Translations under genes and position numbers: made by a program
Shown here: in pieces, positions 18,461 through 53,673 of the stretch
How positions within the stretch are numbered: position 1 is the stretch's first letter
Layout of the letters: each line of letters begins with the position of its first letter
From: Candidatus Doudnabacteria bacterium
Lineage (GTDB): Bacteria > Patescibacteriota > Doudnabacteria > UBA920
DNA: 64,000 bases
Assembly: GCA_963837465.1 (NCBI GenBank)
Contig: CAWINB010000004.1
Location: forward strand, 74,853 to 138,852
Direction: 5' to 3'
Notes under the pieces: model-generated
The model's input: the letters and a program-made list of their open reading frames with translations, nothing else
Told to the model about the DNA's origin: nothing
Databases searched by the model: none

Positions 18461-19003
18461 TTAGTTCCAAGCTAATGGGCTGTAAATATTATTTTGACAA
18501 TGGGCGCATGAATGTTCGGTAATATCCTTGGGGCTGAAACTTCTCATTTTTTGCAACGTTTGTTCAAATTCTAAAATTTCCTCCGCGCTTGGCAAGCCAA
18601 CTTCATAACGTTTGTTATCGGAAAGGCTGTGTAAAAACATTTTTTCTACTTTATACCCCATTTCTTCCATACAAAACATTTCCGCGTAAAGCTGGTATTT
18701 GTAACCCAAATAAATGTTTTTAATTTTATTTTTGCGCTCTATTAAAGTTTTTCCGGTTTGGTCATATATATCGATCTTGCCAATCAAACCATACCTCTCG
18801 CAATATACATCTATCCCCTGAACAAATCGCTTAGCGCTGGAATAAGTCCCATCTTCTATATTTTCATGCACCAACTTCCCCGCCACCTGCGCAGTTTCGT
18901 GATATCCCCGCTGGTCAAAATTCTCATATATTGTATGCAGATATAAAGACAAAGGACAGTAAAGAAAGTCATTTATTTTGGAAATTTGTATGTAATTTTC
19001 CAT
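18461..19003 (-). CDS. cas4: CRISPR-associated Cas4 (RecB-like nuclease with Fe-S cysteines)
   Basis: 180 aa with an N-terminal 'YCP' and C-terminal 'CAHCQ' cysteines. Order is cas12a-cas4-cas1-cas2. Confidence 0.75.
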   Translation of the reverse strand: MENYIQISKINDFLYCPLSLYLHTIYENFDQRGYHETAQVAGKLVHENIEDGTYSSAKRFVQGIDVYCERYGLIGKIDIYDQTGKTLIERKNKIKNIYLGYKYQLYAEMFCMEEMGYKVEKMFLHSLSDNKRYEVGLPSAEEILEFEQTLQKMRSFSPKDITEHSCAHCQNNIYSPLAWN

Positions 19004-19010
19004 TTATTTT

Positions 19011-22000: not shown

Positions 22001-22718
22001 TAAATATTTTTAAATCCTCCTCGCTAAATGCCAGATCGCCTTGTAGCTGACCTTTATAATATTTATCAAACAGCTCCTTATTTTTGGAAAAAATGGTTAA
22101 GTTTTCATCTATAATACGATTAGCAATTGCCGTATCTTCAGCGCCATCGCTATACAAATTTTCTCTGCTTTGACGAAAATTTCCCAAAGAAGTTGCAAAT
22201 TTTTTAAAAGAATCGATCAAAGCTACCGCTTCTTTATTTTTAATCTCTTGAGACTTTAAGATATCCAAAATTTCCTTTTTGAACAGAAATTTAAAGTCCG
22301 TCGAATTTTCAGCAAATTTTACACCATCGGCCGTATATTTTTCTCTCCACTTATCACCAGCGATTTTAAAATATTCAACAACCTCTCTACGTAGATTCTC
22401 TTTTTCTTTACTAAACGGATTCACTTTACCTTTTAACCCAGTTAAATTGCTACTAGTAAACAGCTCATAAAATTCCTTAAAATCCATTTCAGGGGCCATC
22501 AAGGCATCTATTACAAAACGACGATGTACTTCGTCCAAATATGGTTTTATTTTTTTATAATTTTCCGCTACTAATTTATCTTTTTCAATTATCCGGTTTT
22601 CCACCAACATTTTTAAAGTGTTTCCAACCGGCTTCAACTCAAACCTTAAAGTCTTGGAAAGGGCGTATTTTCCAGTAAATTGTTCAAAAATAGACTTTTC
22701 CTTAATTGTGTTTGGCAT
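19011..22718 (-). CDS. cas12a: Cas12a (Cpf1) type V-A effector nuclease
   Basis: 1235 aa with N-terminal 'YALSKTLRFELKPVGNTL'. RuvC-I 'IGIDRGEKHLGYYCIL', RuvC-II '...VIFEDLNSKFKRGR', RuvC-III 'DANGAYNIARKGL'. Adjacent cas4-cas1-cas2 and a Cas12a-type repeat. Confidence 0.9.
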   Translation of the reverse strand: MPNTIKEKSIFEQFTGKYALSKTLRFELKPVGNTLKMLVENRIIEKDKLVAENYKKIKPYLDEVHRRFVIDALMAPEMDFKEFYELFTSSNLTGLKGKVNPFSKEKENLRREVVEYFKIAGDKWREKYTADGVKFAENSTDFKFLFKKEILDILKSQEIKNKEAVALIDSFKKFATSLGNFRQSRENLYSDGAEDTAIANRIIDENLTIFSKNKELFDKYYKGQLQGDLAFSEEDLKIFNLDYYNNCFLQSGIDVYNKIIGADKEAGGVGAKGLNQKINEYRQKHKEEKLPLFQALYKQILSEKSAQEVGRLIIEDDDNLLDTLNEFERENNEVIPEIEKLFKSLLIDKAPFDLSGIYVNGQAFNTISYKWFKNGEIFKQAVINIVNEEKKKKDIKDNLPDFVSFMEISNALETLRYIKNEDLFKEEYIKTKTIDSTQSHLHNFYNIWLSEFYQLLKIYQEANKELGLLLKQKWNKTPQSLEIVKHYAEAVLSLYRMVKYLALEKGKKKIADIKIESNFYNSFNDIYHNWAAFKYYDALRNFLTKKIFLTRKVKLNFDKGNLLDGWSENDAGAAQFCGFIFKKHKKFFLGISDDPGLFERQKYPEAFTAFEKGARYEKMVYKQLKTTSLFGSSYKGMFGSTFKDDKKLMSEKKLLERINKILLTKISKFPELQSLVSKTYVATKDLLADLELVNTYELDFEQVSQVYVEQGVYIRTNKKTKETADKHLYLFEIYSKDFAKKSSGKENLHTTYFKLLFDKQNLNDLVFKLSGGAEVFFRPKSLKSVVDKERKTKIDVIGNKRYTEDKILLHLPISLNANSGAITPKNFNIAVNKELVQNKINIIGIDRGEKHLGYYCILDGEGNIIENEHQSLNVVNGISYHQKLDEREKQRKQARLDWQAIANIKELKEGYASHAVKKLCDLVIKYNAIVIFEDLNSKFKRGRTKIEKQVYQKLELALVKKLNFLVLKHAQEGEFGHPLKAFQLTSPIQSVQNLSGQTGVIFYTAPAYTSTTCPNCGFRKDARLKTVFENVEKSKELIQNLRIQYEVKNNRLAFTYKIADFSNEKPSGKNEWTLYSDVIRYKTSPRIENGEKRYITNSYQITERFIELFDESKIDWRGKGDITDAIINANLTAQFYKNFLFYFGLLLSIRNSSEKDDDFIQCPVCSFDSRNPKDANLSLATIINGDANGAYNIARKGLYMINKIRDAAKAKGGADKLVYKDLFVSLSEWDSFVQK

Positions 22719-32965: not shown

Positions 32966-33826
32966 TTACGCCTGTTTTTTTATAACCTTCTCATAAGGCT
33001 CGGCCGATTCCCAAGCGAACTCAAACAAAATCTTAATAGCGTGGCTTATTTCTTTGCTTGTAATGCTTACCGCGAATATAGTTGGCCGAAAAGAAAAAAA
33101 TACTACAGTGTCGCCAAAAATGGCGTTGTCCGTTAAAAAGTTTTTTTCATTCGGCAAAAACCGCGCCTGGTAATTTTTGTCTTTGGTTGCAATTTTTGCG
33201 TATTCCAAGTTCTCTTTAGAGTATCCCATAACATCGCGCACGGTTAAATTTATTTCCTGGGCTCTTTTCAAAAATTGCACCAGGGTTTCCGGGTCCACTT
33301 TTAAAGCATCCGCGGGAGTGCCAAAAAACCAGACCTCGTTAGCGGAATAAATTTTTTGATAAATTTGTTTTACACCCTCTTTGCCCTCAAATAATTGGAC
33401 ATTGGGTTTTTCCTTTTTGGCGTTAAATAAGGCCAATAAATTTGGCATTGTGCTTTTAAGCAATTCTTCTTTTTTGCGCAAATCGTAAATCAGCTTTTCC
33501 GGCGACTCGGCCGTGTACAAAGCTTTTTTGGCGCGCGGAATAATGCTGACAATCCCCTTTTGCTGGAGCTCATCCAAAATTAAATAGGTAGTCGGGCGTT
33601 TAAGCCCCGCTTTTGCGGCAATTAACTGCACACTCGCCGTCCCCAATTCCAAAAGGGCCAAATAAACTCCGGCCTGTTTTTGGTTTAATCCTGTTTGATT
33701 TAAAACATCGGAAATCTCCATATATTTTACTCGGCAGCATTCCTTAAGTTTGTAATCAAGGGTTCCTTCGGCTGCACTCAGGACGACAGCTATGTTAAGT
33801 ATAAATGATGTTTGTCGTTTTGTCAA
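32966..33826 (-). CDS. TrmB-family HTH transcriptional regulator, paralogue 1 (track start is TTG; likely true start is the ATG 'MEISDVLNQ' at about 33721)
   Basis: 'LNQKQAGVYLALLELGTASVQLIAAKAGLKRPTTYLILDELQQKGIVS' is a TrmB-type wHTH. Paralogue at 40907-41677. Confidence 0.7.
   Translation of the reverse strand: MTKRQTSFILNIAVVLSAAEGTLDYKLKECCRVKYMEISDVLNQTGLNQKQAGVYLALLELGTASVQLIAAKAGLKRPTTYLILDELQQKGIVSIIPRAKKALYTAESPEKLIYDLRKKEELLKSTMPNLLALFNAKKEKPNVQLFEGKEGVKQIYQKIYSANEVWFFGTPADALKVDPETLVQFLKRAQEINLTVRDVMGYSKENLEYAKIATKDKNYQARFLPNEKNFLTDNAIFGDTVVFFSFRPTIFAVSITSKEISHAIKILFEFAWESAEPYEKVIKKQA
33761..33787. repeat. divergent copy (h) of the palindromic element (reverse orientation: GTCGTCCTGAGTGCAGCCGAAGGAACC) in the TrmB-1 upstream region
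   Basis: GTCNTCCTGAG...CGAAGGANCC skeleton conserved. Confidence 0.45.
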
Positions 33827-33839
33827 TTTTTATGACAAA
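33819..33839. promoter_or_regulatory. palindrome TTTGTCA-attttta-TGACAAA upstream of TrmB paralogue 1 (candidate autoregulatory operator)
   Basis: Perfect 7-bp arms. Confidence 0.35.
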
Positions 33840-33904
33840 TAAATATATAAGCCTATAAATGCTTTATTTATGGGTAATTAATGATATAAACTAAGTCATT
33901 ATTA

Positions 33905-33933
33905 TTGACTATCTTGTATATTTATGACATAAT
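33905..33933 (+). promoter_or_regulatory. conserved promoter copy 1: TTGACT-17-CATAAT (…TTATTGACTATCTTGTATATTTATGACATAATA…) driving the plus-strand gene at 34026
   Basis: Near-identical 35-nt block at 41774-41802, next to the other TrmB paralogue. Confidence 0.6.
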
Positions 33934-34025
33934 AGCGAGTTACAATCAAGTAACAAACCTCCCAACTCCGGAGCGGTTGGCAAAGGTAACCTAAGCTCTA
34001 ACACAAAGCCTTAAGGAGGCAAAAA

Positions 34026-34562
34026 ATGAAGACGCAAATCGGTTGGACAAAGATGGCATGGACATTAGTGACCGCCCTCGTTCTTGGACTCATCATCTAT
34101 CCGCATCAACGCCGAGAGAAGAAGGTTGCGGCGGATACTGCCACACTTCGCGGCCGCCTGCTCGGCAATAAGAATTACCGCAACTTTGAAGTCGGCCTGG
34201 AGGAGTATAACATCTCCCTGGTTGACCACGGCGAAATAGAAGTCGAACTGCGCGACCGGCGCGTATGTCACGGCAGCACAAATCCTGATGATGTTTGTAC
34301 CGCCATCATTTGGAGAATGGATGTCCACGGAAAATTCATCAGCCGCGAGACCTACAACTTCAACCACGGGATAAATGTCGGGGTCGGCCGCATCGACAGC
34401 ATTGGACCTAAGGAAGATTATCGTCAGGTGGCGAGTTACGGGATAGGCAACGCGATCCCTTATACCTTTCAGGTCTATCCTTACAGTCCTAAAGACAGGC
34501 GCCTGTACTACTTTCAGCAGCAAATCGACGCGCTGCTGAAAGACATCCCTCCGGCAGCGTAA
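34026..34562 (+). CDS. hypothetical membrane-anchored/secreted protein (178 aa)
   Basis: SD AAGGAGG 8 nt upstream; N-terminal TM segment 'MAWTLVTALVLGLIIY'. Confidence 0.5.
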   Translation: MKTQIGWTKMAWTLVTALVLGLIIYPHQRREKKVAADTATLRGRLLGNKNYRNFEVGLEEYNISLVDHGEIEVELRDRRVCHGSTNPDDVCTAIIWRMDVHGKFISRETYNFNHGINVGVGRIDSIGPKEDYRQVASYGIGNAIPYTFQVYPYSPKDRRLYYFQQQIDALLKDIPPAA

Positions 34563-34643
34563 CTACTTCAGGCGGGCGGCGATGACAACATCAACCGCCC
34601 TGCCCACTTTACTTTTTTGAATTCAACAAAGTTTTTTGACCTT

Positions 34644-34673
34644 ACCTTAGTAAATAAAATTTGTTTACCGAGG
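34644..34673 (+). promoter_or_regulatory. operator/promoter motif copy 1: ACCTTAGTAAATAAAATTTGTTTACCGAGG (imperfect dyad CCTTAGTAA...TTACCGAGG) preceded by TTGACC
   Basis: Second copy at 35036-35065 with perfect 9-bp arms. Confidence 0.5.
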
Positions 34674-34739
34674 TAGGGCCATAAACCCTAGTTCCCAGGA
34701 ACGCTCCAAACAAACTCCCCACAATATTAAGGAGAGTGT

Positions 34740-34970
34740 ATGACACAGCGCAAAGAACAGTACTTCGTTATCTCGTACCGAGATAACGGCTACTACGAGG
34801 ATGACTTAGACTGCTACACTTGGGAGTCTGACCTCCAATTCAAAGGAGCAGCCGGGCCCTTTGAAAAAGCCGAGGCGCAAGCCTGGGCAGACAAGGGCAA
34901 TAGGGTTGATAAAGAGTGGCACTACAAAATAGTGCCAAAACTGAAACTCAACCTTTTGGCTCGACTGTAA
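34740..34970 (+). CDS. hypothetical small protein (76 aa)
   Basis: SD AAGGAGA upstream; preceded by the operator motif. Confidence 0.45.
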   Translation: MTQRKEQYFVISYRDNGYYEDDLDCYTWESDLQFKGAAGPFEKAEAQAWADKGNRVDKEWHYKIVPKLKLNLLARL

Positions 34971-35035
34971 CTTCGCTAACCGCCCCGCAGGTCTGTGCGG
35001 GGACGGCAAGACTCTTCACCGATTCTTGCCGCTCT

Positions 35036-35065
35036 ACCTTAGTAAGTAAATTTTGTTTACTAAGG
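35036..35065 (+). promoter_or_regulatory. operator/promoter motif copy 2: ACCTTAGTAAGTAAATTTTGTTTACTAAGG (perfect arms CCTTAGTAA/TTACTAAGG)
   Basis: Upstream of the lipoprotein-like gene; preceded by two GC hairpins (34980-35030). Confidence 0.5.
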
Positions 35066-35141
35066 AGGAGAATACATAATTTTTTCCAGGTAACTTGTTT
35101 ATCTAAACAATAAATGGTAACCGGGTTTCCTGGAAAAAGTT

Positions 35142-35651
35142 ATGAAAAAACTAATTACTACCATTCTGTTTGCGATATCCACGTGCGCAAGCCTGACCGC
35201 CCAAACCCCCAATGAGCCGCAACTCTCATTGGAAGAACAAAAGATAAAGCTTAAAAAGCTGGCGCAAGACCTGCGCTTGAGCGTTGCTTTTATAAGCTTT
35301 GAGGCAGAAAAACTGCAGACGGCGACCACAAAGGCCAAAAAAGCCAAGGAAACGGACGACGAGTTCTCGGCCAAGAAAGAAGTCCAAAAAGAAGCAGGTA
35401 AATTGTTTGGGCTCGTTAAGAACTATGGGGGCTTATACCCACATCTCCAGCAGGAGTTTGATAAAATCCTCAACTCTTTTGAAGTGTTCAGACCCAAATC
35501 TGACGACCCCGACTACCTTAAAAAAACGACGGCGGAAAATAGCCGTGAGATGGAGCTTCTGGCGTGGTACAACAAACTCTGCGCGGGAACACAGCTTCCA
35601 AATAATCTGGTAAAGATTATGAGGGAAGCCAAGACTGCCACAGAGCAATAA
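35142..35651 (+). CDS. hypothetical secreted/lipoprotein-like coiled-coil protein (169 aa)
   Basis: Signal peptide 'MKKLITTILFAISTCASLTAQ'. Confidence 0.5.
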   Translation: MKKLITTILFAISTCASLTAQTPNEPQLSLEEQKIKLKKLAQDLRLSVAFISFEAEKLQTATTKAKKAKETDDEFSAKKEVQKEAGKLFGLVKNYGGLYPHLQQEFDKILNSFEVFRPKSDDPDYLKKTTAENSREMELLAWYNKLCAGTQLPNNLVKIMREAKTATEQ

Positions 35652-35869
35652 ACCATACCCGGCGCGAGACTCAAAACCTCGCGCCCCTATCTTAGCAAAT
35701 AAGCTTTATTTGTTGAGATAGGGATGTCCACTAAATTGACAACATATTAGTTAAATAAATTGCTTTAAATTAATCTTAGTATATAATTAACTTAAATAGA
35801 GACGGCTTAAATAAGCTATTCTCTTTATCTAAATAATTTAATCCCAAATTTTGGGAGAAATAAATATGT

Positions 35870-36622
35870 ATGAGAGATTTAGGAAGCACGCCTCTGGATG
35901 CTGTGGAATGGAAAGCTCCGGACACTGGGGCTGGAAGCCCTGAAGAAGGAAGCCCGCAGGCCAAAGCCGCAAAAATTATTGAAATATCAAAAGCCAATGC
36001 CTTACAGATTACTGAGAGAGAAGGAAAACCGGGCTGGGCTCCTTATGAAGACAGGTTGGCTGTTGCGGAGCGTAACTGGATATCGCAAGCCATGAAAGGC
36101 AACCAAGACCAGGCGGTTTTGGGAATTTTACAGCAACGATTGGCAGAAATAGACGAGCAAGTCCCAAACATGCAGGAATATTTACAGGATAGAGCAGCAG
36201 CGGAAGACAGTCTTGAAACGTATAGGGCTGGGATTGAGAATTCTAAAAAGGAAGCCAAAATTCTTTTGGAGCAAAAATTACCCGCCATAGAGGCTGCCTT
36301 TGCAGATTTTCCCCAAGAATTAAAAATAAATATTGCGGATAATAATGGTAAAAATATAGTGGCTTTGGATGACAGTCCTAATATGGCGATTGTGCACCAA
36401 AGGGAGCTGGGACAGCAAAAGTTTCCCGGCAAAACCGAGCAGCTGGAAAGTTTTTTAGACCAAGCCGGAAAAATTGTTACTACTTTTCCTAAACTGGAAG
36501 GAGAATACAACCTTGGTTTAATATGGCATAAAGAAAAAAGTATTACCGTCGGCAAACTATTAAAAGAAATTAAGTCCGCCCTTGAAGCGGCGGAAAAAGT
36601 TAAAACCCCGGAAACTCTTTAA
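35870..36622 (+). CDS. hypothetical protein (250 aa)
   Basis: Long ORF with coiled-coil-like composition and no recognisable domain. Confidence 0.45.
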   Translation: MRDLGSTPLDAVEWKAPDTGAGSPEEGSPQAKAAKIIEISKANALQITEREGKPGWAPYEDRLAVAERNWISQAMKGNQDQAVLGILQQRLAEIDEQVPNMQEYLQDRAAAEDSLETYRAGIENSKKEAKILLEQKLPAIEAAFADFPQELKINIADNNGKNIVALDDSPNMAIVHQRELGQQKFPGKTEQLESFLDQAGKIVTTFPKLEGEYNLGLIWHKEKSITVGKLLKEIKSALEAAEKVKTPETL

Positions 36623-36640
36623 ACAAGAGGGTTTATTATT

Positions 36641-37360
36641 TTGATTATGAACGAAACGGGAAGCAACAACGAAGAATTAGCCAATTGGCATCCGCCCGAA
36701 GAACCCAAAAAACCTTCGCGTTTTGGCAGGACTTTGGGCGCTGTAAACAGATTCAAAGACGCCGCAACAGAAGCGGCGGCTGGACAGTTTGCCAAGGGCA
36801 TGAAAGCCGCAAGGAATTTTGATACAGAGGCGGTTTTGACAGCGGCACAGGCGGCAGTGGATAGCGCCGCAACTGTCGGTAAGGATCTTGCCGGACGAGG
36901 CGCGGAGGTTGCAATCAATTTTAAAGATAGTGCTATTAAAACTTTTGAGGGTGAAAGATTCCGACAGCTTACTGCAACCCTCCAGGAAGTATTAACTTCG
37001 CCGGAAGCCCGTAAAGTTCTGGAAAAATTGCCCTTTGCCCGTGGGATTGTAAAAATTATTGAGGGCGGCGTGGGCACAACCATGGAACGGGAATCTTTAA
37101 GTGTATTCGGCAGAATGAAAAAAGTTGTCGGCGGAGGTAAAGATTTAGCGGTGGATACTCTGGGCGGAGAGGCTATAAAGGGAGCAAAAATTTTACAAGC
37201 GTTAATTAATGCCGGGCCCGATATTTTATCCCAAGTTGGGCATGCGCTAAAGGCCAGAGAAGTTAAAGGCGCGGAAACAATAGCGGCTTTGGCAAGTTTT
37301 ATGCAGGAACACCCAACCATCATAAACTTCTTAAGCGGCAAATTGCCGTCAAAAAGATAA
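36641..37360 (+). CDS. hypothetical Ala/Gly-rich protein (239 aa)
   Basis: Long ORF 18 nt after the previous gene (operon-like). Confidence 0.45.
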   Translation: MIMNETGSNNEELANWHPPEEPKKPSRFGRTLGAVNRFKDAATEAAAGQFAKGMKAARNFDTEAVLTAAQAAVDSAATVGKDLAGRGAEVAINFKDSAIKTFEGERFRQLTATLQEVLTSPEARKVLEKLPFARGIVKIIEGGVGTTMERESLSVFGRMKKVVGGGKDLAVDTLGGEAIKGAKILQALINAGPDILSQVGHALKAREVKGAETIAALASFMQEHPTIINFLSGKLPSKR

Positions 37361-37365
37361 TACTT

Positions 37366-37536
37366 ATGACCCAAGACCAACTAAACCAAATTTTAGATCA
37401 GCTTATTTCCTTAGGCGGGAATAAAGACGAATTGGAAATGTGGAGGGCCTTATACTTGACTTTACCTCAGGAAAAACAGGAGCAATTGGATAAAAATTTC
37501 AAACGGGAACTGGAACTGCTAAAAAATCAAGCCTGA
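37366..37536 (+). CDS. small hypothetical protein (56 aa, below the track cutoff), whose stop is embedded in an intrinsic terminator (37530-37553)
   Basis: ATG 6 nt after the previous stop; AGCCTGAT-aaa-ATCAGGCT + T5 at the 3' end. Confidence 0.3.
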   Translation: MTQDQLNQILDQLISLGGNKDELEMWRALYLTLPQEKQEQLDKNFKRELELLKNQA

Positions 37537-37567
37537 TAAAATCAGGCTTTTTAAATCCACGGATACC

Positions 37568-40500
37568 TTGATTTTTGGGTCAAAATACTATAAAGTTTGT
37601 TGTATGAAAAATTCATGGATTAACAATTATTTTGACGGGTTTACAATAGAAAAAGGGCGGGATTACTTTAACCAAAACAGGGTAAAGAGTATTAAATTTG
37701 AAGACGATGAATTAACGGCAAAAGTTTGGGGTACCGGCGCAAACCCTTACGATACAAAAATTCATCTGGAAAAAAGCGGAATATGTCACACCGAATGCAG
37801 TTGTCCAATAGGAGACGGCTGCAAACATTGCTCGGCTCTGGCTTTGGCTTACTTATCGGAGCAAAATAACCTGGCCTTGCCAACCATTAACGCGGCCGCC
37901 AAACAGGTTGTAAGCGGGCCTCCGGTAAAAATCGGCGCGTGGCAAAAATTTTTGGAGCCGATAATCGGCGGCAAACAGGAAACAAACAGCGACGCCGCGA
38001 CTCCGTGGCGCCTGCAAATTATATTGCGAACCAATGAGCCGGATTATTACCAAGAGGGTGTGGCGGAAGGCGCCGAACTACTGGTGGAACTTCGTCCGCA
38101 AAAAGTACATAACCAAACCGGCAAAACTATTTTCAGCGGCGTGGAATGGAACAGCCTGGAAAACTTAAAAACCCGCGACTATCAATATTACGTCCACGAG
38201 CCGGACAAACAACCCCCCAGAAGCCAAATAATTTGGCTTTGTAATTTACACGACGCCTTAAACCCGGACACCGGTTATTATTTTTCATCCAAAGACTGGC
38301 TGCCGGTGCCCGCCAGAAAAGCCGCGGATGTTTTTCGGTTGCTGTTAACAGCCGAAGAATTCGGCATAGACATAAAAGACCTGGCCGGCATTAAAGTAAA
38401 TATCAGCAACAAACCGGTAAAAAATTCTTTGGTAATAACCGAAGCCGGCAATAATGTAACTATCAGCCCTGAACTGACCCAGGACGGCAAAGTCATTGAT
38501 ATGGAAAGCCTGGAAACGGGAAGGCCGCCTGTTTTTGTCCTTTTGACCGGCAAACAGCCGAATTCCAAACAGCCGCTGGAGCTGAGACCTGTAATTCAAG
38601 CCGGCGCCGGCGTTAAAAAATTTGAAAGGCCTCTGGCAATACCGCAAAATGAACTTGACCAGTTTGTTAAAGAGTACCTGCCGCTGCTGGCCAGGGATTT
38701 TTATATAATTTCACAAACTGAAAAAATAAAACCGCCGATTTTAGGTGATCCGGTTTTAAACATATCCGTAAATAAAATATCTCCCCAATCCATAGGCATA
38801 GAAAATTATCTTGCCTACAATAACCGGCGCCTGGATTTGGCAAAAAATGATATTTATCTGGATAACGGGAACGAAGCGCCAATAGCCAGAAATTTGCGGC
38901 TGGAAAACCGTTTGAGCCGCGTAGTGACGGAAAAAATAATAGCGGCCGGCATTAAAACAGCGGCCAGGGAACAATTTACGCTGGCCGGCGCCGAAGCCAA
39001 AAGTTTTTTGGAAAAGGTTTTGCCGTCGCTGCGCGAACATCAGAACATTATTCTGGAGTCCGCCGCCGATTTGCCCCGGTTTGAAGAAGTGCTTGGGGCT
39101 CCAAAAATAGAAATTGAAATGGAGCAGGGGCAAAGCCAGGATTGGTTTGACCTCCAGCTAAAAATTTTCGTTGATGGCGCCAGCATACCTGTCGCAGAAA
39201 TTTTAAACGCGCTCGCGCAAAACAGCACCCTGTTGTTTTTGGCGGACGGCAGGTACATAGATTTAAGCAAAAGTCCGGAAATCCAAAAACTCCAGGCCCT
39301 GCTCAAACGCGCCAACAAGCTAAAAGACGTGGCCGGCGGCAAGCTCTCCATAAGCAAGTTTGAAGCCGGATGGTTCGAACAGCTTAAAGAACTCGGCATT
39401 GTGGCCAAGCAATCCAAACTTTGGGAAGACAGTGTGGGAAAACTAAAAAATTCTTCCGCTCCGGAATTGCTGCCGCATCCAAAAAATTGGCAGCACAAAC
39501 TGCGGGATTACCAACTGGAAGGCTTTTCCTGGCTGAACTTTTTGGCCGAAAACAACCTGGGCGGAATTTTGGCCGATGACATGGGCCTGGGCAAGACTGC
39601 TCAAAGTATTGCCCTGATATGCAAAGTTGCGGAAACAACCAAACTGCCCACCCTGATAGTAGCCCCAACCAGCGTGGTGGAAAGCTGGGATATGGAACTT
39701 AAAAAATTCGCGCCGGAACTTAAAACGGCAATTTTAAGGAGCGGCGACAGAAAAGCCGCGCTTAAAACGCTGGGCAAAAACCAGGTAGTGATAACTTCTT
39801 ACGCCCTTGTCAGGCGCGATTTTGAAATTTTAAAAAAACAGGTCTGGAAAATGCTGGTACTGGACGAAGCTCAAATGTTGAAAAACTACCAGTCGCAAAG
39901 CTACGGGCTGATAAGACAATTAAATGCCGGTGTAAAAATAGGGCTCTCCGGCACGCCAATGGAAAACAATTTAAGCGAGCTCTGGTCGGTTTTTTCCATA
40001 GTTTGTCCCGGACTGTTTTCCGATATTGAGCACTTTAAGGAATTTTTCCAAAAACCAATAGAAAGATTTTCCAATAAGGAAGCGCTGGACAGCCTGCGCA
40101 AACAAATCCGGCCTTTTATAATGCGGCGCAAAAAAGAACTGCTGGGAAAAGAATTGCCGGCAAAAATTGAACAAATTTCCCTGATGGATTTACAGGGCCG
40201 CCACCGAAAAATTTATGACCTCTGGCTGGCCAAGCAGAGGCAACTGGTTTTGGGGTTAATTGAACAGGGCGGGATGAAAGCCAACCGCTTTGCCATTCTT
40301 ACCGCCCTTACCCGCTTAAGGCAACTTTGCCTGCATCCGGCATTGGTGGATAAAAAACACCTGTCGGTGGAAGCTGTAAAAGTAGAAGGGCTGATTGGAC
40401 AAATTGAAGCCATTGTAGACGGCGGCCACCAGGTGCTGGTATTTAGCCAGTTTACCGGTTTTTTGGAAATTATCAGAAGCAGGCTTTCCGCGGAAGGCTA

Positions 40501-40876
40501 TTTTTATTCCTACATAGACGGCTCGGTAAAAAAACGCCGCGAAGAAATTGACAAGTTCCAGTCGGGCAAAACAAAAATTTTCCTCATTAGCCTTAAAGCC
40601 GGCGGTTTTGGGTTAAATCTGACGGCGGCCGATTACTGCATTATGCTTGACCCATGGTGGAACCCGGCGGCCGAAGCCCAGGCCATAGACCGCGCCCACC
40701 GCATTGGCCAGACCAAACAGGTTATGGTCTACCGCTTCATCGCTAAAAATACCATAGAGGAAAAAGTTTTAAAACTTCAGGAAAAAAAGCGCTCCCTGTT
40801 TAAAAATGTCCTGGACGAAGGCGAATTCTTCTCGCAAATGATTACCGAGGATGACATAAAATCCATTTTGGAATAA
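37568..40876 (+). CDS. SWIM zinc-finger / SNF2-family helicase (likely start at the Met at about 37604)
   Basis: N-terminal SWIM 'CSCPIGDGCKHCSALALAYL'. C-terminal SNF2 ATPase 'LRDYQLEGFSWL...DDMGLGKTAQSIAL', 'DEAQMLKN', 'LSGTPMENNLSELWSVF' and helicase-C 'DRAHRIGQTKQVMVYRFIAKNTIEEKV'. Confidence 0.85.
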   Translation: MIFGSKYYKVCCMKNSWINNYFDGFTIEKGRDYFNQNRVKSIKFEDDELTAKVWGTGANPYDTKIHLEKSGICHTECSCPIGDGCKHCSALALAYLSEQNNLALPTINAAAKQVVSGPPVKIGAWQKFLEPIIGGKQETNSDAATPWRLQIILRTNEPDYYQEGVAEGAELLVELRPQKVHNQTGKTIFSGVEWNSLENLKTRDYQYYVHEPDKQPPRSQIIWLCNLHDALNPDTGYYFSSKDWLPVPARKAADVFRLLLTAEEFGIDIKDLAGIKVNISNKPVKNSLVITEAGNNVTISPELTQDGKVIDMESLETGRPPVFVLLTGKQPNSKQPLELRPVIQAGAGVKKFERPLAIPQNELDQFVKEYLPLLARDFYIISQTEKIKPPILGDPVLNISVNKISPQSIGIENYLAYNNRRLDLAKNDIYLDNGNEAPIARNLRLENRLSRVVTEKIIAAGIKTAAREQFTLAGAEAKSFLEKVLPSLREHQNIILESAADLPRFEEVLGAPKIEIEMEQGQSQDWFDLQLKIFVDGASIPVAEILNALAQNSTLLFLADGRYIDLSKSPEIQKLQALLKRANKLKDVAGGKLSISKFEAGWFEQLKELGIVAKQSKLWEDSVGKLKNSSAPELLPHPKNWQHKLRDYQLEGFSWLNFLAENNLGGILADDMGLGKTAQSIALICKVAETTKLPTLIVAPTSVVESWDMELKKFAPELKTAILRSGDRKAALKTLGKNQVVITSYALVRRDFEILKKQVWKMLVLDEAQMLKNYQSQSYGLIRQLNAGVKIGLSGTPMENNLSELWSVFSIVCPGLFSDIEHFKEFFQKPIERFSNKEALDSLRKQIRPFIMRRKKELLGKELPAKIEQISLMDLQGRHRKIYDLWLAKQRQLVLGLIEQGGMKANRFAILTALTRLRQLCLHPALVDKKHLSVEAVKVEGLIGQIEAIVDGGHQVLVFSQFTGFLEIIRSRLSAEGYFYSYIDGSVKKRREEIDKFQSGKTKIFLISLKAGGFGLNLTAADYCIMLDPWWNPAAEAQAIDRAHRIGQTKQVMVYRFIAKNTIEEKVLKLQEKKRSLFKNVLDEGEFFSQMITEDDIKSILE

Positions 40877-40879
40877 AAT

Positions 40880-40909
40880 ACCGGCTTAGGCTTTAGCGCC
40901 GGTTTTTTA
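40880..40909 (+). terminator. intrinsic terminator ACCGGC...GCCGGT + T6 after the SNF2 gene
   Basis: Stem followed by a T-run; overlaps the 3' end of the convergent TrmB-2 gene. Confidence 0.5.
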
Positions 40910-41677
40910 ATTTACCACTTTCTCATAAGGCTCGCTTGCCAGCCAGGATGTGATAAACAGCGCTTCCAGGGATTCATAAATTCCCCTGCTGGAGATTTGC
41001 ACGGCAAAAATATAGGGTTGGTAGGAAAAAAATGCCGCGGTGCCATCAAACAGAGCGTTATCTGTCATTAAATTCATACCGGCGGGCAAAAACCTATGCT
41101 GGTAGTTCTCGCTGTGCTGCATTTTTTTTGCGTAATTAATGTCTCCCTCGTTACGGCTTAAAAGTTCCCGAAATTTCATTTTGCCCTCCAGGGCTGTTTT
41201 CATTATTCGATTGGGATAATCCGGAAACACACTTTCAATATCGCGGATTGTACAGAAAAAATCCACTTTTTTTGCCTGTAAAATTCTTTCGTAAACTTCA
41301 GCCACAGCCTCTTTTCCCTCAAAAAACTGAACTTGGGGTTTTTCTTTGCGTTCAGATTCATTATAAAGAGCCTCAAGGTTGGGTAAAAATCTTTTATAAA
41401 GCTCCTTGGTTTTTTCCAGCTCTCCTAAAATTTTCCCCGGGCCGACGGCAACATACAATTTTCTACCCCCTTGCGGCACCGAAGAAACCAGGCCTTTATG
41501 CTGAAGGCTTTCCAAAACAACATAGGTAATAGGCCTTTTAAGCGCGGCCTTTGGTCCTATTTTGTAGGCAGAAGACGGTCCCAGCTCAAGCAAAGCCAAA
41601 TAAACCCTGGCTTCTTTATCACTTAACCCTGCCTTGTTTAACACTTCTGCTAATTCCATATATACAGTATATATCAA
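40907..41677 (-). CDS. TrmB-family HTH transcriptional regulator, paralogue 2
   Basis: 'LNKAGLSDKEARVYLALLELGPSSAYKIGPKAALKRPITYVVLESLQHKGLVS'. Similar length and C-terminal domain to paralogue 1. Confidence 0.7.
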   Translation of the reverse strand: MIYTVYMELAEVLNKAGLSDKEARVYLALLELGPSSAYKIGPKAALKRPITYVVLESLQHKGLVSSVPQGGRKLYVAVGPGKILGELEKTKELYKRFLPNLEALYNESERKEKPQVQFFEGKEAVAEVYERILQAKKVDFFCTIRDIESVFPDYPNRIMKTALEGKMKFRELLSRNEGDINYAKKMQHSENYQHRFLPAGMNLMTDNALFDGTAAFFSYQPYIFAVQISSRGIYESLEALFITSWLASEPYEKVVN

Positions 41678-41773
41678 ATCTTAAATTTAGTCAATATTTT
41701 TGATTATTATATTATATATCATAAAAAAGCTTATAAATAAAGCATAATATAACATTTAGTCTATTCTATGTTA

Positions 41774-41802
41774 TTGACTATATGTCATATTTATGACATA
41801 AT
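41774..41802 (+). promoter_or_regulatory. conserved promoter copy 2: TTGACT-17-CATAAT with internal dyad TATGTCATA..TATGACATA
   Basis: Matches 33905-33933; drives the plus-strand gene at 41837. Confidence 0.6.
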
Positions 41803-41836
41803 ACATTGTCAGGATAATTAAACGAAAGGATTTCAT

Positions 41837-42265
41837 ATGCATAATGAAAAAAGTTATAATTCTGATTTTTTATTGTTTCAACCGATTTTTAAAAAAGAAA
41901 GCCAGCTAGAAGGAGGTGTTAATATGGACGAAACTTTAGGGAAAATAGCCGTTGAAATGGACAGGCTCGCAGAAAAACAGGCCAATAAAATTGGCTGGAA
42001 CAGAGACATGAGGCGCTTCACTGAAGGATGCCTATATTGCACAGCAAGGTGCCATTTACGCGGCCAGCCCGATGTGCGGCATGATTTTTTAGAAGACCTT
42101 TGGCAGATTCTCCCGGCTTACGGAATAAACCCCCTGCCAATCCAGGAAGCCTTTAAACAAAAGTTGTTGGAAAAACCATGGACTACAACGGTTGCATATC
42201 GTCGAGAGGATATCTTAAAGTTGGTTGCCGATCAGCTTATCAATCGGGCAGCTAAGTCTAAATAA
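41837..42265 (+). CDS. hypothetical protein (likely true start at the ATG at about 41924, preceded by GAAGGAGGTG)
   Basis: Strong SD before the internal Met 'MDETLGKIAV'; no recognisable domain. Confidence 0.45.
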   Translation: MHNEKSYNSDFLLFQPIFKKESQLEGGVNMDETLGKIAVEMDRLAEKQANKIGWNRDMRRFTEGCLYCTARCHLRGQPDVRHDFLEDLWQILPAYGINPLPIQEAFKQKLLEKPWTTTVAYRREDILKLVADQLINRAAKSK

Positions 42266-42871: not shown

Positions 42872-45733
42872 CTAATAGCTCCAATTTAAGTCCCCCTGAT
42901 TAGTTGTTATTTTAATCAACGCTAACCCATTTAAAGTTTTATTAATTTTTCCAGTTTGGTCTTTACCTATTAACAGGGTTTTATTCAGCATGTAAATGGC
43001 TAAAATATTATAGTCTTTTTTGGATTGTACCTGCTGGGTCAGGACTTGCGGGACGCCTTTTCTGTCAAATGACCAATCAAAGTGTAAAAGGTTGGCGCTT
43101 AAGTCCGCGGCTTTGCCATTATAGGTCAAGGATTTAATGTCGGCCTTAAGCGTATTCTTCCTGCCTTTGCCCTGCAAGGTCATTATGGTTCGGTTGCCCG
43201 CGGCATCGGTAGCTGTAATAACATCGTCCTGGTCTAAAACCTTAAGGCTTGGACGGCTGATTAAGCTTGACGTGGAAGACAATAAAGCAGGAAGAGTATC
43301 TGTCGCGGTAAATTGCAGGTCCTCCAGGTCGGGATTAAACCGCACAACCAACTCCGGCGCGGTTTTATCTATTGTAAAGACAATGGTTTGGTGCTGTTCG
43401 TTGTTGCCGGCTTTATCCGTGGAGAAAAAACTTACGGTATGGATGCCTTCTGAACTTACCACAACCGGCTGGTCATAAGCTTGGTAACCGCTGCCATCCA
43501 AACTATATCGCGTATTTAAAACTCCGGATGTTTGGCTTGAGTTATTGCCCGCCACAGGATCGATGGCGGACAAACCAACGCTGACATTGCTGCTGTAATA
43601 TCCGATCTGTCCCATAGTGCCTGTAATGGTGGAAGTGGAAACGGGAGCCGTAATATCAGCGGACTGATTCGCGTTAATAACCGAAGAAGGCATAACCGTA
43701 ACCGGAACGCTGGTGGCCGTAGCCCGTAAACTTAAAGTTGTCGGTCCCCCGCTGCCAAGATTAACAGATCCGGTCAATGACGGGGTTACGGGAAGATTGC
43801 TAAAGACCTGGGTTTGGGTTACATTGTTGCCGTCTATACTTTGGTCATCCAGGGTAAAGGTACCGGAGCCTACGCCAGTTAAGTTGATATTATAAGTTTG
43901 CCCGTCATCGTCAGGTAAAAATACGTACTTATGATCGCCCCATACTTCGTAATCGGCTCCCGGAATATCGTTTTGCATGGAGCCGTTGGAAGCGACTTGG
44001 GAAATATTACCTGACTGGTCGGTAACGGATATCGCCACAGGGCTTTTAATCTTAATCTGCTCACCTTTAATTTCACAAAGCTTGGGGTTGGCCTGGACCG
44101 CGTCGTGGGTTAAAATTTTTCCATCCGTATCAAGCCGACTGCCAGTTAAAATATTAACTATTTGCTGTCTAATGCCGTCTGCCGATGGCATTTTTCCATG
44201 TTCCGCTTTCGGCGCGAAAAATACGTGATCGGGATCAGCAGGAATGGTTTGCGCGCTCAGCAGCGGCACAGTACCGTCGCCGCTGGCATCAACCGGAAAA
44301 TCATAAACAGAAGAGCCGTCCTCCTGGACACTTTCCGTAAACTTGCCGAAGGTCGCGGTTTTACAACCAATAATATTATACACATCAACGCCATTGTTGC
44401 GGATATCATAGTTATCAAAATCGGCGGTACGCAAAGCATGGCTGTTGGCAAGAGCCGCGCTGTTTACCAAATGCTGATTTTCAAACTCCGCGACCGTGCT
44501 ATTGTAATCCAGGTCTTTGCCCTCATCTATGAGCGAAACAAAAGGATCGGACTTATTTAAAAAACTGCCTACCTGCCGGCCATACTGCGCGTCCGGAGCC
44601 AAGTCATAAGCGATGGGCAGGTTTTGGGAGATTTGCTTCATCTCCTGATCATTCAGGTCCGGTACGCTAAAACCATCGCCATTTATTAAAGCCTTAAAGG
44701 CTTTTGGGGCTCCCAGGTTTGGGACGCCTACAAACACAACCTTGTTTAAAAAGCTTGGCTCATTATTGTTGGCACTATCCATTACATATTTTTTTACAAT
44801 TAAGCCCCCGGTACTATGCGCCACAAGATTAACCTAACCTATGCCGGTCTGTAAAATTATGGAATCAATTTTATTTTTTAATTGCCTTACAACATCATCG
44901 CTCACCCCATAACGCCAATCATAAGGAAAAACAAATAAATTTTGATTTTCAGTATATCCTTGACTGGTAAGCTGGCTTATCAGACCCGCGGAATAATTAT
45001 ATAACTGAAAGGGGTTTCTTATTATATCCCCTGTTTCTACATCAGCATTGGACGGAACTAAGTCCGGGCTAAAACCCAAAGGGTTCATGAAAGAATCGCT
45101 GTCAAATGGATTTTTAGCCATTCTTGGGATGTCGGCCCACAGTAAAGTATTGTTTTGGAATATTTCCGTACCCAACAAGCCAGGGACAATCAGCACAGGC
45201 CGCGGAGCGCCTGGGTCGGCAATAGAAAAAGAAGCGGAAACAACCTCGGAACTTCCGTAATAATCATTGGCGCTAAAAGAGGCTTTAAATCCGCTTTGAA
45301 AATTTGGGTTTGTAAAAACATTGTCACAAAGAGGGCAGTTTAAAAGCGTATTATGATCGTCATCCCAAATCTGGAAGCGCGCCCCGCTAATAAAACGCAG
45401 GCTAAAATTAATGGTGCCCGCGGGCAGGATAAACGTACTGGTTTGTAAATTTGAAAAATTATCGACCAAATTGCAGTTGCTGTCAAAAATATCCAAGCCC
45501 GGCACAATAATATTTTGTCCATTGTTATTTTCATTATCCAAAAGCCGCAAATGAATTCTTAAAAGCCCATTCGCATAGTCGGCGGACGTAAAACTATCCA
45601 AAAAATGATTATCATCGCGGTAGCTAACACCTCTGCAAACCGCGCCGCCGCCAATAGGAATAGTAACAGCCGCAAAAGCATAATAAGGCAAAATAAATAA
45701 CCCCGGAACCAAAACCAAAAAAATTTTTCTCAT
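42872..45733 (-). pseudogene. large secreted lipase/PGAP1-like alpha/beta-hydrolase with C-terminal beta-rich surface domains, interrupted by one in-frame TAG (44834-44836) five codons upstream of the GHSxG-like nucleophile motif
   Basis: Track ORFs 44834..45733 (signal peptide, 'PVLIVPGLLGT') and 42872..44824 (begins V-N-L-V-'AHSTGG') are in the same frame: ...QTGIG-TAG-VNLVAHSTGG. Confidence 0.6.
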
Positions 45734-49089: not shown

Positions 49090-50304
49090 TTAAAGCTTTG
49101 GAACGGCACCATAGGCTCCGGCCATATATTTAGCGTAGTAGTTATCATCCGCCCGTACGCCACTAACCTCATCCAAACGCCAAGATTCACTTTCATTACT
49201 TTGGTTTTTTTCTACGAATACTAACTGATATTTATCCAATTTACTTAAAATTATATGGCTATGAGTGCTAAATAAAAGCTGGGCATTCTTAGGGTTGGTT
49301 TCCGGCTGGATAAATAGATCAAAAAGCGAAAGTAATATCTCAGGATGCAGACTGGAGTCCATTTCATCAAACACGGCAATTCCTCCTTTATCCAATACTT
49401 GTAAAATACTTTTTAAAAGAACAAATAACTGTTTAGTTCCTGAAGACTCATAAATAATCGGAAGGGCTTGTTCTTGGCCATTGTATGAGTGAATGCCCGT
49501 GATGTTTATTTGAAAACCATTCCCGGATGGCTTTTTGTCTATATTAATACCCGCCAATCCAAGATCAAAACGAGATAAAAGCTTTTCTGCTTTTTCTTTC
49601 AAAGCCTTATTATCGTTATAAAAAACCAAAGCATCAAACCATTGAGGCATTGCGTTATTCAACATTGGATCTCCCATCCAACCAGTCTCACTGGCATTCG
49701 TCTCTAGTCCCTGCCAAAATTCTGCGATCTCCTGGCTTTCCTTATGGTTTAAACGGGCCGCTGCCGAAATAACGCTAGCATTTTTACGCAATAAATTTAA
49801 ATTTTCAAAACCTTTAGGCAAGCCGAAGCCCTCGCCGTCAAAAGTATAAGCTGCTGATTGAGGGTTCCATGTTCGGACAAATAACGTTTTGGTCCCCATT
49901 TTTTCTTTTGCCATACTTGTGAGTTTTAACTCTTCCAAAAAAATCTTGGTTTTGTCTAAAATAAAGCTATACGTATAAATTTTTTTATCAACTTCAAACA
50001 CAACAGAAAGCTCTGTTTGCTGATCTTTCTTCTCTCCAAAAGCAAACGATTGTACTGCAATAGGAAATTCTGGCGGCATTGTAAACGAAGTAACAATAAG
50101 CCATTTAAAAAATGGTAAAACTTTAAGCAAGTTAGTTTTGCCTGAGGCATTAGAACCTATTATCGTTTCTACTTTTGAAAGCCGGGTGCCGGAAGGGGCT
50201 ACAAAATATCCATAATTTTCCGGAGCATTGTCGTTCACGACAAAATCAAGGGTTGTCAAGTCCCCAAAAGAATAAAAATTCTTGCAAGAAAAAGAATGGA
50301 TCAT
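49090..50304 (-). CDS. AAA/ABC-type ATPase of the OLD/RloA/AriA class (AAA_21-like)
   Basis: Walker A 'GSNASGKTNLLKV' near the N-terminus and a Walker B/D-loop region 'GIAVFDEMDSSLHP'. Confidence 0.6.
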   Translation of the reverse strand: MIHSFSCKNFYSFGDLTTLDFVVNDNAPENYGYFVAPSGTRLSKVETIIGSNASGKTNLLKVLPFFKWLIVTSFTMPPEFPIAVQSFAFGEKKDQQTELSVVFEVDKKIYTYSFILDKTKIFLEELKLTSMAKEKMGTKTLFVRTWNPQSAAYTFDGEGFGLPKGFENLNLLRKNASVISAAARLNHKESQEIAEFWQGLETNASETGWMGDPMLNNAMPQWFDALVFYNDNKALKEKAEKLLSRFDLGLAGINIDKKPSGNGFQINITGIHSYNGQEQALPIIYESSGTKQLFVLLKSILQVLDKGGIAVFDEMDSSLHPEILLSLFDLFIQPETNPKNAQLLFSTHSHIILSKLDKYQLVFVEKNQSNESESWRLDEVSGVRADDNYYAKYMAGAYGAVPKL

Positions 50305-53466: not shown

Positions 53467-53673
53467 TGTTTCTAAAACACAAAGCCCCGCGCCAGCATGA
53501 GCCTTACGGCTCCATGGCCTTTCGACCATGACCCAACGAAGAGTAGCTGAACACGGGGTTCAGTATTTTCGTTGGGTTTTTTCATGCCATGCCCGGGCCC
53601 TTGGGGGGCTGCGGGTTTAGGCATATTAAGTTGTTAGCCTTATTTTAGGGTAATTTTAGGTTTTTTACAAATT

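Follow-up and report, generated by a model that had tools for sequence, protein, structure and literature searches.

Described regulators of the TrmB family include archaeal ones: TrmB and TrmBL1 (Tgr) of the Thermococcales and Halobacterium TrmB act at palindromic operators in the core promoter and regulate their own genes, and TrmBL2 is a chromatin protein and global repressor. In bacteria, classical divergent repressor-target units have the regulator opposite its target, operators over both -35 boxes and an integral number of helical turns between them. Transcription control in the Candidate Phyla Radiation (CPR, or Patescibacteria) is almost unstudied, and a full-text literature search for TrmB together with CPR or Patescibacteria found no paper. 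Here we describe a locus encoding two TrmB-like regulators, TrmB1 and TrmB2, in a Candidatus Doudnabacteria bacterium (assembly GCA_963837465.1, contig CAWINB010000004.1). The 64-kb stretch analysed is hereafter the window, and the locus sits in it between the housekeeping genes uvrB and rpsT. It comprises, in tandem, two copies of a regulatory module conserved in the CPR, placed ahead of cargo genes that turn over fast, and is not the single seven-kb island that a preliminary description had proposed.

The locus is also present on a contig from the assembly of run ERR10755945. In each copy an AT-rich gap separates a minus-strand regulator from a divergent plus-strand gene, and this pair of cassettes of regulator plus promoter had been correctly recognised. 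The regulators had also been taken to bracket the genes between them. However, the cassettes are tandem units, and the second promoter drives a 142-amino-acid (aa) gene beyond the supposed island. For comparison, we used 80 metagenomic loci and several genome contigs encoding TrmB homologues (L009 and similar labels below). As far as sequence comparison can tell, the module, made of a TrmBL2-like regulator, two palindromes and divergent promoters, occurs in dozens of CPR contigs.

The two regulators

TrmB1 and TrmB2 both carry the winged-helix-turn-helix (wHTH) domain PF01978, with scores of 46.9 and 55.2 bits against a cut-off of 25.6 (E 2.5e-12 and 6.5e-15), and are 46% identical over 250 aa, which confirms the TrmB-like paralogue pair reported earlier. 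TrmB1 has 415 CPR homologues of ~250 aa each, all from uncultured Patescibacteria, Candidatus Doudnabacteria among them; PF01978 is carried by all homologues among the matches listed (at least 120). Alignment with more than 100 homologues opening with ME(I/L)xE(V/I)L places the starts at ATG 33721 for TrmB1 and ATG 41659 for TrmB2. The starts given before lie too far upstream, inside the regulators' own promoters: TTG 33826, taken as the TrmB1 start, is the -35 hexamer TTGACA of the TrmB1 promoter.

The family profile matched P. furiosus TrmB (3qph) at E 1.9e-7, and in this alignment Tyr46, invariant among the CPR proteins, pairs with Tyr50 of P. furiosus TrmB, a residue important for DNA binding (PMC4158304). 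The AlphaFold2 (AF2) model of the TrmB1 monomer (predicted local distance difference test, pLDDT, 85.6) has a long helix at residues 74-99, at a position matching the coiled-coil helix. Its best folds in the PDB are TrmBL2 (5bpd, E 7.6e-14) and then TrmB (3qph), and the top eight Foldseek matches are TrmBL2 chains (260-272 aligned columns, E 7.6e-14 to 2e-12). The C-terminal domain resembles PLD-like folds (NucT, SauUSI) and the TrmB effector subdomain 2f5t (E 6e-6), and the second sugar-binding subdomain is absent from its fold, as in TrmBL2. Together, the matches of profile, fold and PLD-like domain therefore place the regulators in the TrmB family, with a short TrmBL2-like architecture. At the wHTH level, TrmB1 also weakly matches CasR/Csa3 (PADLOC, E 1e-5 to 5e-3), and a tblastn search of a phage collection with TrmB1 gave no match.

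TrmB2 is closer to regulators of other genomes (55% identity) than to TrmB1 (46%), and falls in a separate clade with its own relatives at 64-67% identity. These values rule out a recent duplication of the cassette, and by the same measure TrmB1 and TrmB2 are best viewed as old paralogues.

Operators and divergent promoters

The palindrome seen earlier upstream of regulator 1 (O1) appears to be a widely conserved putative operator and not a chance feature. Of 81 loci, 48 have the exact motif TGTCA-N7-TGACA upstream of their TrmB homologue, at protein identities down to ~30%, and the TTGACA half of O1 typically lies at the regulator -35. In most loci, TrmB2 included, this hexamer is 29-34 nt before the ATG, so that a leaderless regulator mRNA is predicted; for TrmB2, the -10 ends 7 nt ahead of the ATG. 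TrmB1 and some relatives, unlike most loci, have leaders of 65-145 nt between regulator promoter and start.

A second GTCA-N7-TGAC site (O2) overlaps the divergent -35. The O1 and O2 centres are 72-75 bp apart in 24 loci and 64-65 bp apart in 10, that is, about seven or six helical turns, and the two cassettes of the window (73 and 74 bp) have about seven, with both sites on the same DNA face. Placed side by side, about 20 loci share one layout: regulator start, -10, O1, ~66 nt, O2/-35, a spacer conserved in part whose end is TTTATG, -10, and GTTAAAACAAAA at the start of the transcript. The promoter-distal half-sites (AGTCA of O2 and the distal TGACA of O1) are conserved at fixed N7 spacing.

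The operator also varies with the regulator. All KRP-T-x-Y-L regulators for which an O1 site was found (~47; three more have no site) go with GTCA-N7-TGAC, whose distal half is TGAC, and the five KR[PS]-I-x-Y-[VI] regulators (TrmB2 and those of L094, L095, L091 and L096) all go with GTCA-N7-TGAT or TGAG. This suggests that the Thr to Ile position in the recognition helix tracks the change in the operator's distal half. TrmB1 and TrmB2 differ in their recognition helices, and their operators differ to match; each cassette is therefore probably insulated from the other. In the 64 kb, four of six WGTCA-N7-TGACW sites (at most one mismatch) lie within the locus, one of them at 35725-35741. The latter is weak taken alone, as 2.5 such sites are expected by chance and L093 has no counterpart.

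The two cargo promoters, P1 and P2, are near-consensus sigma-70 sequences, TTGACT-N17-CATAAT with an extended -10 TG. The promoter block that they had been said to share is real: it spans 33 nt, 29 of them identical, and P1 and P2 are the sole window pair fitting the pattern at three mismatches or fewer, with 0 matches in 100 shuffles. Sixteen sigma-70-like N17 sites of the window agree pairwise at 16.2 ± 2.6 of 33 positions, against 29 for P1/P2, and the likeness is therefore not a general AT-rich consensus. Family promoters of other genomes share 20.1 ± 3.4 of 33 positions; their consensus is TTATTGACtaTa-N6-aATTTATGnTATAATT, and the best-conserved positions are the -35, the TATG of the extended -10 and the -10 itself. 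Because P1 is as close to the L016 promoter (29 of 33) as to P2, and P2 agrees with the L026 promoter at 30 of 33 positions, the likeness of P1 and P2 would be due to selection acting on a shared cis-module and not to a recent duplication. Hence, of the cassette duplication suggested previously, the presence of two copies stands, but the near-identity of their promoters does not stem from recent copying, given also the separate TrmB2 clade.

Both dyads described earlier are present, TTGTCA-N7-TGACAA upstream of regulator 1 and TATGTCATA/TATGACATA within the P2 block. In about 20 related loci, the divergent cargo transcripts open with the conserved A-rich GTTAAAACAAAA; P1 has the variant GTTACAATCAAGTAAC (~33940-33960) and P2 is without it.

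A conserved slot with variable cargo

The uvrB-rpsT slot houses the regulators in orthologous loci too, as emerged from the synteny mapping that the preliminary description had proposed. The order RuvA-UvrB-TrmB, then divergent cargo and S20, is found in L009, L012, L016 and L096. L094 (GCA_964561365.1) has both cassettes in the same order as the window: UvrB, TrmB1-like, cargo, TrmB2-like, cargo, S20. The TrmB1 type occurs alone in L009, L012 and L016 and the TrmB2 type alone in L096, and L095 holds both types within 6.8 kb. The flanks are well preserved (UvrB 72-84%, RuvA 63-78% and S20 63-79% identity), and FemAB, Mur ligase and Fic are conserved as well.

The cargo between regulator and S20 is unrelated across genomes. 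BLAST matched w_56 and w_239 only, and L093, the closest relative, shares the whole trio w_250, w_239 and w_56 (Table 1). In relatives, Pfam identifies ABC transporter substrate-binding proteins and a radical SAM enzyme, and inspection by eye adds candidate CheW-like, isochorismatase-like, cupin-like and receiver-like proteins and several signal-bearing ones. In distant family members, the divergent gene often encodes an ABC substrate-binding protein, as for archaeal TrmB. Given such heterogeneous cargo, the regulators are best seen as a family of local switches, each for the gene that happens to follow its divergent promoter. In L069, L070 and L076, three to four TrmB-like regulators stand in a tandem array, and a divergent gene for a Peripla_BP_6-type substrate-binding paralogue lies opposite each of them. 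The unit of regulator and target was amplified more than once in other CPR genomes.

Table 1. Features of the locus in window coordinates
Feature	Position	Strand	Basis
TrmB1, TrmBL2-like regulator, 251 aa; wHTH, predicted coiled-coil helix and PLD-like C-terminal domain	32966-33721	-	PF01978, AF2, Foldseek, profile search
TrmB1 promoter TTGACA-N17-TATACT, then ~70-nt leader	33798-33826	-	11/12 consensus match; -35 is half of O1
O1, perfect palindrome TTGTCA-N7-TGACAA over TrmB1 -35	33820-33838		Only perfect site in window
O2, palindrome AGTCA-N7-TGACT; right half is P1 -35; centre 73 bp from O1 centre	33894-33910		Layout alignment
P1 block TTATTGACTAT-N7-ATTTATGACATAATA; -35 33905-33910, extended -10 TG, -10 33928-33933	33902-33934	+	Pattern search
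Structured 5' leader of first cargo gene; two hairpins and CCUCC complementary to Shine-Dalgarno (SD) sequence	33938-34025	+	Fold, L013 comparison
w_178, 178 aa, N-terminal membrane anchor, orphan	34026-34562	+	Hydrophobic segment, residues 6-24
Hairpin h1, 18-bp stem, 3-nt loop, GC-rich hairpin ahead	34640-34678	+	Repeat search, fold
w_76, 76-aa orphan without signal sequence	34740-34970	+	Open reading frame (ORF), Pfam, N-terminus check
Hairpin h2	35032-35070	+	Repeat search, fold
27-nt inverted repeat pairing across w_169 start codon	35075-35144	+	Repeat search, fold
w_169, 169-aa orphan, N-terminal signal-like segment	35142-35651	+	ORF, Pfam, N-terminus check
Hairpin h3, compensatory changes against h1/h2	35685-35723	+	Three pairs changed on both sides
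Candidate third operator TGTCC-N7-TGACA, one mismatch, 19 nt upstream of internal -35	35725-35741		Pattern scan
Predicted internal promoter-like site TTGCTT-N16-TATAAT for trio	35760-35787	+	L093 TGaTATAAT at equivalent position
w_250, helical bundle and small alpha/beta domain, near-orphan	35870-36622	+	Protein searches, AF2
w_239, near-orphan	36641-37360	+	Protein searches
w_56, small helical protein, conserved w_239 partner	37366-37536	+	Homologues in L093, L012
Terminator-like hairpin (8-9 bp) and short T run after w_56	37529-37554	+	Terminator scan, fold
SNF2-family ATPase, SNF2_assoc region, N-terminal SWIM-like CxCx5CxH	37604-40876	+	Pfam, synteny
Hairpin and T run between convergent SNF2 and TrmB2 genes	40880-40908		Sequence reading
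TrmB2, paralogous regulator, 250 aa, recognition helix KRPITYVVL, predicted leaderless mRNA	40907-41659	-	PF01978, alignment, promoter position
TrmB2 promoter TTGACT-N17-TATACT	41666-41694	-	Promoter scan
O1', AGTCA-N7-TGATT, variant typical of TrmB2 clade	41689-41705		Same variant in L094, L095, L091, L096
O2', ATTCT-N7-TGACT, distal half degenerate; right half is P2 -35; 74 bp from O1'	41763-41779		Family spacing
P2 block, with dyad TATGTCATA-N2-TATGACATA at 41781-41800	41771-41803	+	Pattern search
w_142, orphan cargo of cassette 2, outside the island described earlier	41837-42265	+	ORF, driven by P2

Cargo genes and RNA hairpins

The cargo of the window falls into several units. The genes between the regulators had been treated as one module; instead, the trio recurs alone in L093 under its own promoter, without SNF2. 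The ORFs as such were listed correctly, with the qualifications that the SNF2 gene most likely starts further downstream and that its SWIM motif scores below cut-off. As for the "small secreted proteins", an N-terminal hydrophobic segment is found in two of the seven cargo proteins, w_178 and w_169, and is missing from the remaining five, of which the small ones would be cytoplasmic.

The six cargo proteins other than SNF2, and w_142, have no match in Pfam, NCBIfam, PHROGs or PADLOC, and neither w_178 nor w_239 matches any PDB sequence. A single homologue of w_239 was found in 5.8 billion proteins (P0122, 51%) and three relatives of w_250 among 1.84 billion representatives; the AF2 model of w_250 (pLDDT 73.4) has no structural neighbour in the PDB or BFVD. 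The L093 trio (254-aa w_250 homologue, 71%; w_239, 51%; 53-aa w_56 homologue, 70%) is preceded by a TGnTATAAT promoter of its own and by a different upstream gene, and a terminator follows the small gene. L012 encodes a 54-aa w_56 homologue (46%) and a 225-aa protein weakly matching w_239 (22%, E 0.003), and the first cargo gene of L013 is w_178-like (MKT…TM start). For w_142, an alternative start at 41924 is preceded by a strong GGAGG. The guanine-plus-cytosine (GC) content is 50% at 34001-35000, which covers the 178-aa and 76-aa genes, and 39-45% in the adjacent kilobases, a patch compatible with recent acquisition of w_178 and w_76.

Several RNA structures accompany these genes. The leader of w_178 has a homologue in front of the L013 gene, with a compensatory stem change from CCAAC/GTTGG to CCGAC/GTCGG. 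After each of the first three cargo genes lies an imperfect palindrome of ~39 nt (h1-h3) with a GC-rich hairpin just upstream, folding into 18-bp stems with 3-nt loops at -16 to -25 kcal/mol. A covariance model scored h1-h3 at 64-65 bits in sense and 29-45 bits in antisense (65 and 35 for h3), a bias consistent with G·U pairs in RNA. L016 has a homologue (9130-9186, minus strand) in the gap between its first two cargo genes, which are unrelated. Searches of 860 kb of related loci with the covariance model gave no copy besides this one, and viral contigs contained no match to a degenerate pattern. The h1-h3 elements are not intrinsic terminators: their 18-bp stems are AT-rich, lack a U tract and were not called on the plus strand. 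At 18 bp, such a duplex is of sufficient length for RNase III. We tentatively suggest that they are intercistronic RNA stem-loops for processing, stabilisation or attenuation. No Rfam family was found in 33700-36000 besides a chance-level mir-513 match (25 bits, cut-off 72), and none in the leaders or hairpins of relatives.

A further small motif occurs in leaders of TrmB-divergent operons of L020, L024, L026, L027, L095 (two sites) and L096, and is absent from the window. It comprises a 3-4-bp hairpin with a GGCG loop and a co-varying stem (CCU/AGG, CCC/GGG, CUCC/GGAG, CUGC/GCAG), followed by AAUACGC, and stands 15-25 nt before the SD sequence. A longer form in L009, L017, L021 and L012 adds a 5' domain with GGUGAUAC. 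The loop GCG and the tail CGC could form a pseudoknot. The small motif has no Rfam match and may be an undescribed cis-regulatory RNA.

The SNF2 ATPase

The largest cargo protein scores 225 and 75 bits against the Pfam models of the SNF2-related ATPase core and Helicase_C. Its start is most likely ATG 37604, giving 1090 aa, the form on record, and a weak promoter may also place it there. The SWIM motif stays below the Pfam cut-off (15.5 against 19.6 bits), and CSCPIGDGCKH is visible in the translation. The nearest GTDB relative, from Saccharibacteria, is 39% identical, and the remaining contig-scan matches are actinomycete. None of the relatives examined (L009, L012, L016, L093, L094 and L096) has the gene in the slot, and we regard it as a separate unit and a passenger in the slot. 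A role as defence system was considered and rejected: the PADLOC and NCBIfam matches cover the generic SNF2 core below their cut-offs, the NCBIfam scores for ZorD, DrmD and DpdE lying far below them, and PADLOC models found no Zorya, DISARM or Dpd partner gene among nine neighbouring proteins.

A model for the module and its alternatives

We consider it probable that the locus holds two tandem CPR TrmB modules in which the regulator, in response to a ligand, cooperatively represses both its own promoter and that of the cargo. This builds on the DNA-binding family and fold of the regulators, on the conservation, spacing and co-variation of the palindromes and their overlap with the -35 hexamers, and on the conserved slot with its variable cargo. 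As to binding, sign of regulation and ligand control, regulator dimers would bind the GTCA-N7-TGAC palindromes O1 and O2 on the same helix face. Occupancy of O1 would cover the regulator -35 and that of O2 the divergent cargo -35; cooperative occupancy, possibly with looping, would shut both promoters, and relief would come from a ligand that the C-terminal domain senses. Two observations favour repression: the centres of O1 and O2 lie ~37-38 bp upstream of the predicted starts, and the promoters are near consensus.

Several points weigh against such cooperative repression. Each palindrome includes a -35 hexamer as one of its halves, and its conservation is therefore in part that of a promoter. 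The distal half-sites of cassette 2 are poor (TGATT, ATTCT), and TrmB2 may bind differently, with the TATGTCATA/TATGACATA dyad in the P2 spacer as an alternative site. The five I-type loci are probably one or two evolutionary events, and because of this the co-variation is supportive, not conclusive. Moreover, the Pfam TrmB effector domain PF11495 was not matched at E ≤ 0.1 by either regulator, TrmB-family proteins activate as well as repress (PMC4158304), and TrmBL2 is described, in PMC4877046 and PMC3031468, as coating DNA and binding it largely without sequence specificity.

From the same facts one could argue that palindromes and block are mere promoter signals in AT-rich DNA and that the TrmB-like proteins regulate elsewhere or coat DNA like TrmBL2. 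The TTGAC -35 hexamer makes up half of O1 and of O2, block conservation peaks at the -35, the extended -10 TATG and the -10, and the nearest solved fold, TrmBL2, is presented in PMC4877046 as a non-specific chromatin protein. Yet a promoter does not need the distal half-sites, which are kept at fixed N7 and vary with the recognition helix; the distance between O1 and O2 takes discrete values of ~6 or 7 turns, and the identity of P1 and P2 lies five standard deviations above that of other promoter-like sites of the window. We think this explanation unlikely. A comparably small chance is given to the opposite sign, with TrmB-like activators acting on the cargo promoters through O2 or through the 35725-35741 site, ~61 bp upstream of the internal start, and repressing themselves at O1. 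TrmBL1/Tgr and Halobacterium TrmB repress or activate depending on site position (PMC4158304), and the candidate third site does lie upstream of the internal promoter and not over it. On the other hand, P1 and P2 are near-consensus promoters with an extended -10 that should need no activator, and O2, centred at about -37 over the -35 hexamer, is in a typical repressor position.

Two further explanations concern the cargo, and both seem very improbable. A single seven-kb island, for instance for defence or DNA transactions, with small proteins and a SWIM-SNF2 ATPase under two bracketing regulators, would fit the common orientation of the seven genes between the regulators and the scores of SNF2 against the DpdE, ZorD and DrmD models. 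However, those matches cover the generic SNF2 core only and no Dpd, Zorya or DISARM partner gene is present; no relative has SNF2 in the slot, while the trio does recur in its absence, and a terminator-like hairpin precedes the SNF2 gene. Promoter 2 is directed away from the island and the cargo is unrelated between genomes. Synteny largely refutes this reading. Alternatively, the uvrB-rpsT slot could be a site of cassette acquisition, in which 18-bp hairpins mark boundaries in the manner of integron attC sites and the TrmB cassette provides the promoter. Three near-identical hairpins do follow three unrelated small genes, with a homologous one after the unrelated first cargo gene of L016; cargo is wholly different between genomes whose UvrB is 81-84% identical; and the layout, with a divergent gene, a promoter and same-strand promoterless ORFs each followed by a hairpin, recalls an integron. 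Integron attC sites have the cores R''/L''…L'/R', RYYYAAC … GTTRRRY. The h1-h3 elements are without R''/R' cores and shorter than attC, and their scores are higher when read as RNA of the sense strand, with G·U pairs. Hairpins are lacking at other junctions, including those of L093, L009 and L012, and no copies occur in 860 kb of related loci except L016, or in viral contigs. No tyrosine recombinase was found in ten mid-sized ORFs scanned in the window, where the sole integrase-type match is an rve transposase 18 kb away, and Pfam found no integrase domain in ten locus proteins. With no recombinase in the ORFs scanned and no attC cores, we judge an integron unlikely.

Two tandem modules of ligand-responsive repression remain the preferred reading. 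As a speculation, to which we give a low chance, the uvrB-rpsT slot may be a regulated "expression dock" for swapped accessory genes in small symbiotic CPR genomes. If so, the TrmB switch, sometimes duplicated with re-tuned operators, would give a tightly controlled strong promoter behind which new orphan genes, perhaps coding for surface factors or for interaction with a host, are exchanged. The 18-bp hairpins would mark or process the cassette boundaries, and the whole would be a capture-and-expression platform without a known recombinase.

Other features of the window

A CRISPR-Cas locus with GC 29-38% occupies 15217-22718 and includes Cas1 (17495-18457, minus strand), small ORFs at 18461-19003 and 16385-16711, and a 1235-aa ORF (19011-22718, minus strand) that is a likely candidate effector. 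A short repeat array (15217-15431, period 62-63, 3.4 copies) adjoins an rve-family transposase (15444-16127, minus strand). At 4241-6263 (minus strand, GC 34-38%), a C-5 cytosine DNA methyltransferase (5223-6263) overlaps a 348-aa ORF without Pfam match (4241-5287); the two may form a restriction-modification pair. A 404-aa AAA_21/AAA_15 ATPase, for which the Pfam descriptions mention AbiEii-type proteins, is encoded at 49090-50304 (minus strand), and 53499-53623 (minus strand) is a full-length match to the LOOT RNA (RF03000; 65.6 bits, gathering score 46.4). Downstream of S20, 650-aa and 299-aa ORFs (42872-45733, minus strand) jointly match one 764-aa LCAT-domain protein of L096 (~42%). The LCAT-type gene appears to be split in the window, or to have a start or a frameshift between the two ORFs.

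Comparison with known systems

The module is a familiar type of switch and overturns no principle. It provides a testable regulatory code for a widespread CPR family, composed of the operator, the phasing of two sites over divergent -35 hexamers and the Thr to Ile helix position, and makes regulon prediction possible for organisms that cannot be grown. A stable regulatory cassette before genes that are replaced between close relatives also points to the place in which lineage-specific, probably environment- or host-related functions reside.

Among the cargo, the SNF2 protein has the SNF2-rel_dom, Helicase_C, SNF2_assoc and N-terminal CxCxnCxH in common with the SWIM/SNF2_assoc ATPases of the SCO1167 family (NCBIfam "pilus expression-regulating Snf2 family helicase"). 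It differs in its score (437 bits against an equivalog cut-off of 1100), in having no conserved neighbours and in the distance to its nearest relative (39%). Integron arrays similarly combine a promoter beside a divergent gene, small same-strand ORFs each followed by an imperfect palindrome, and highly variable cargo; here, in contrast, no integrase was found in the ORFs scanned and no attC core in h1-h3, the hairpins measure ~39 nt and most junctions of the relatives are without them.

The regulators themselves share with TrmB and TrmBL1 of the Thermococcales and with Halobacterium TrmB the PF01978 domain with its DNA-contacting tyrosine and, in the predicted fold, a long helix at the position of the coiled-coil dimer helix. 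On the CPR side, palindromic operators at the core promoter and autoregulation are predicted, as is control of the adjacent transporter genes in distant members. However, the CPR host is a bacterium with sigma-70-type promoters, its regulators are only ~250 aa long without the second sugar-binding subdomain, and its operator is GTCA-N7-TGAC instead of TACT-N3-AGTA, TATCAC-N5-GTGATA or TACT-N7-8-GAGTA. The divergent layout with two operators is fixed, and the cargo in the window consists of orphans and not of sugar genes. TrmBL2 (5bpd, 5bqt) is the best full-length fold, with the same ~260 aa, wHTH, coiled coil and single PLD-like C-terminal domain. At ~20% identity to it, the CPR proteins differ in that their palindrome is specific and co-varies with them and that their target is local and divergent, and the co-varying operator argues for site-specific binding rather than the non-specific binding of TrmBL2. 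Finally, the layout is that of classical bacterial divergent repressor units, here built with a different protein family and with regulatory DNA that is conserved while the regulated genes are replaced.

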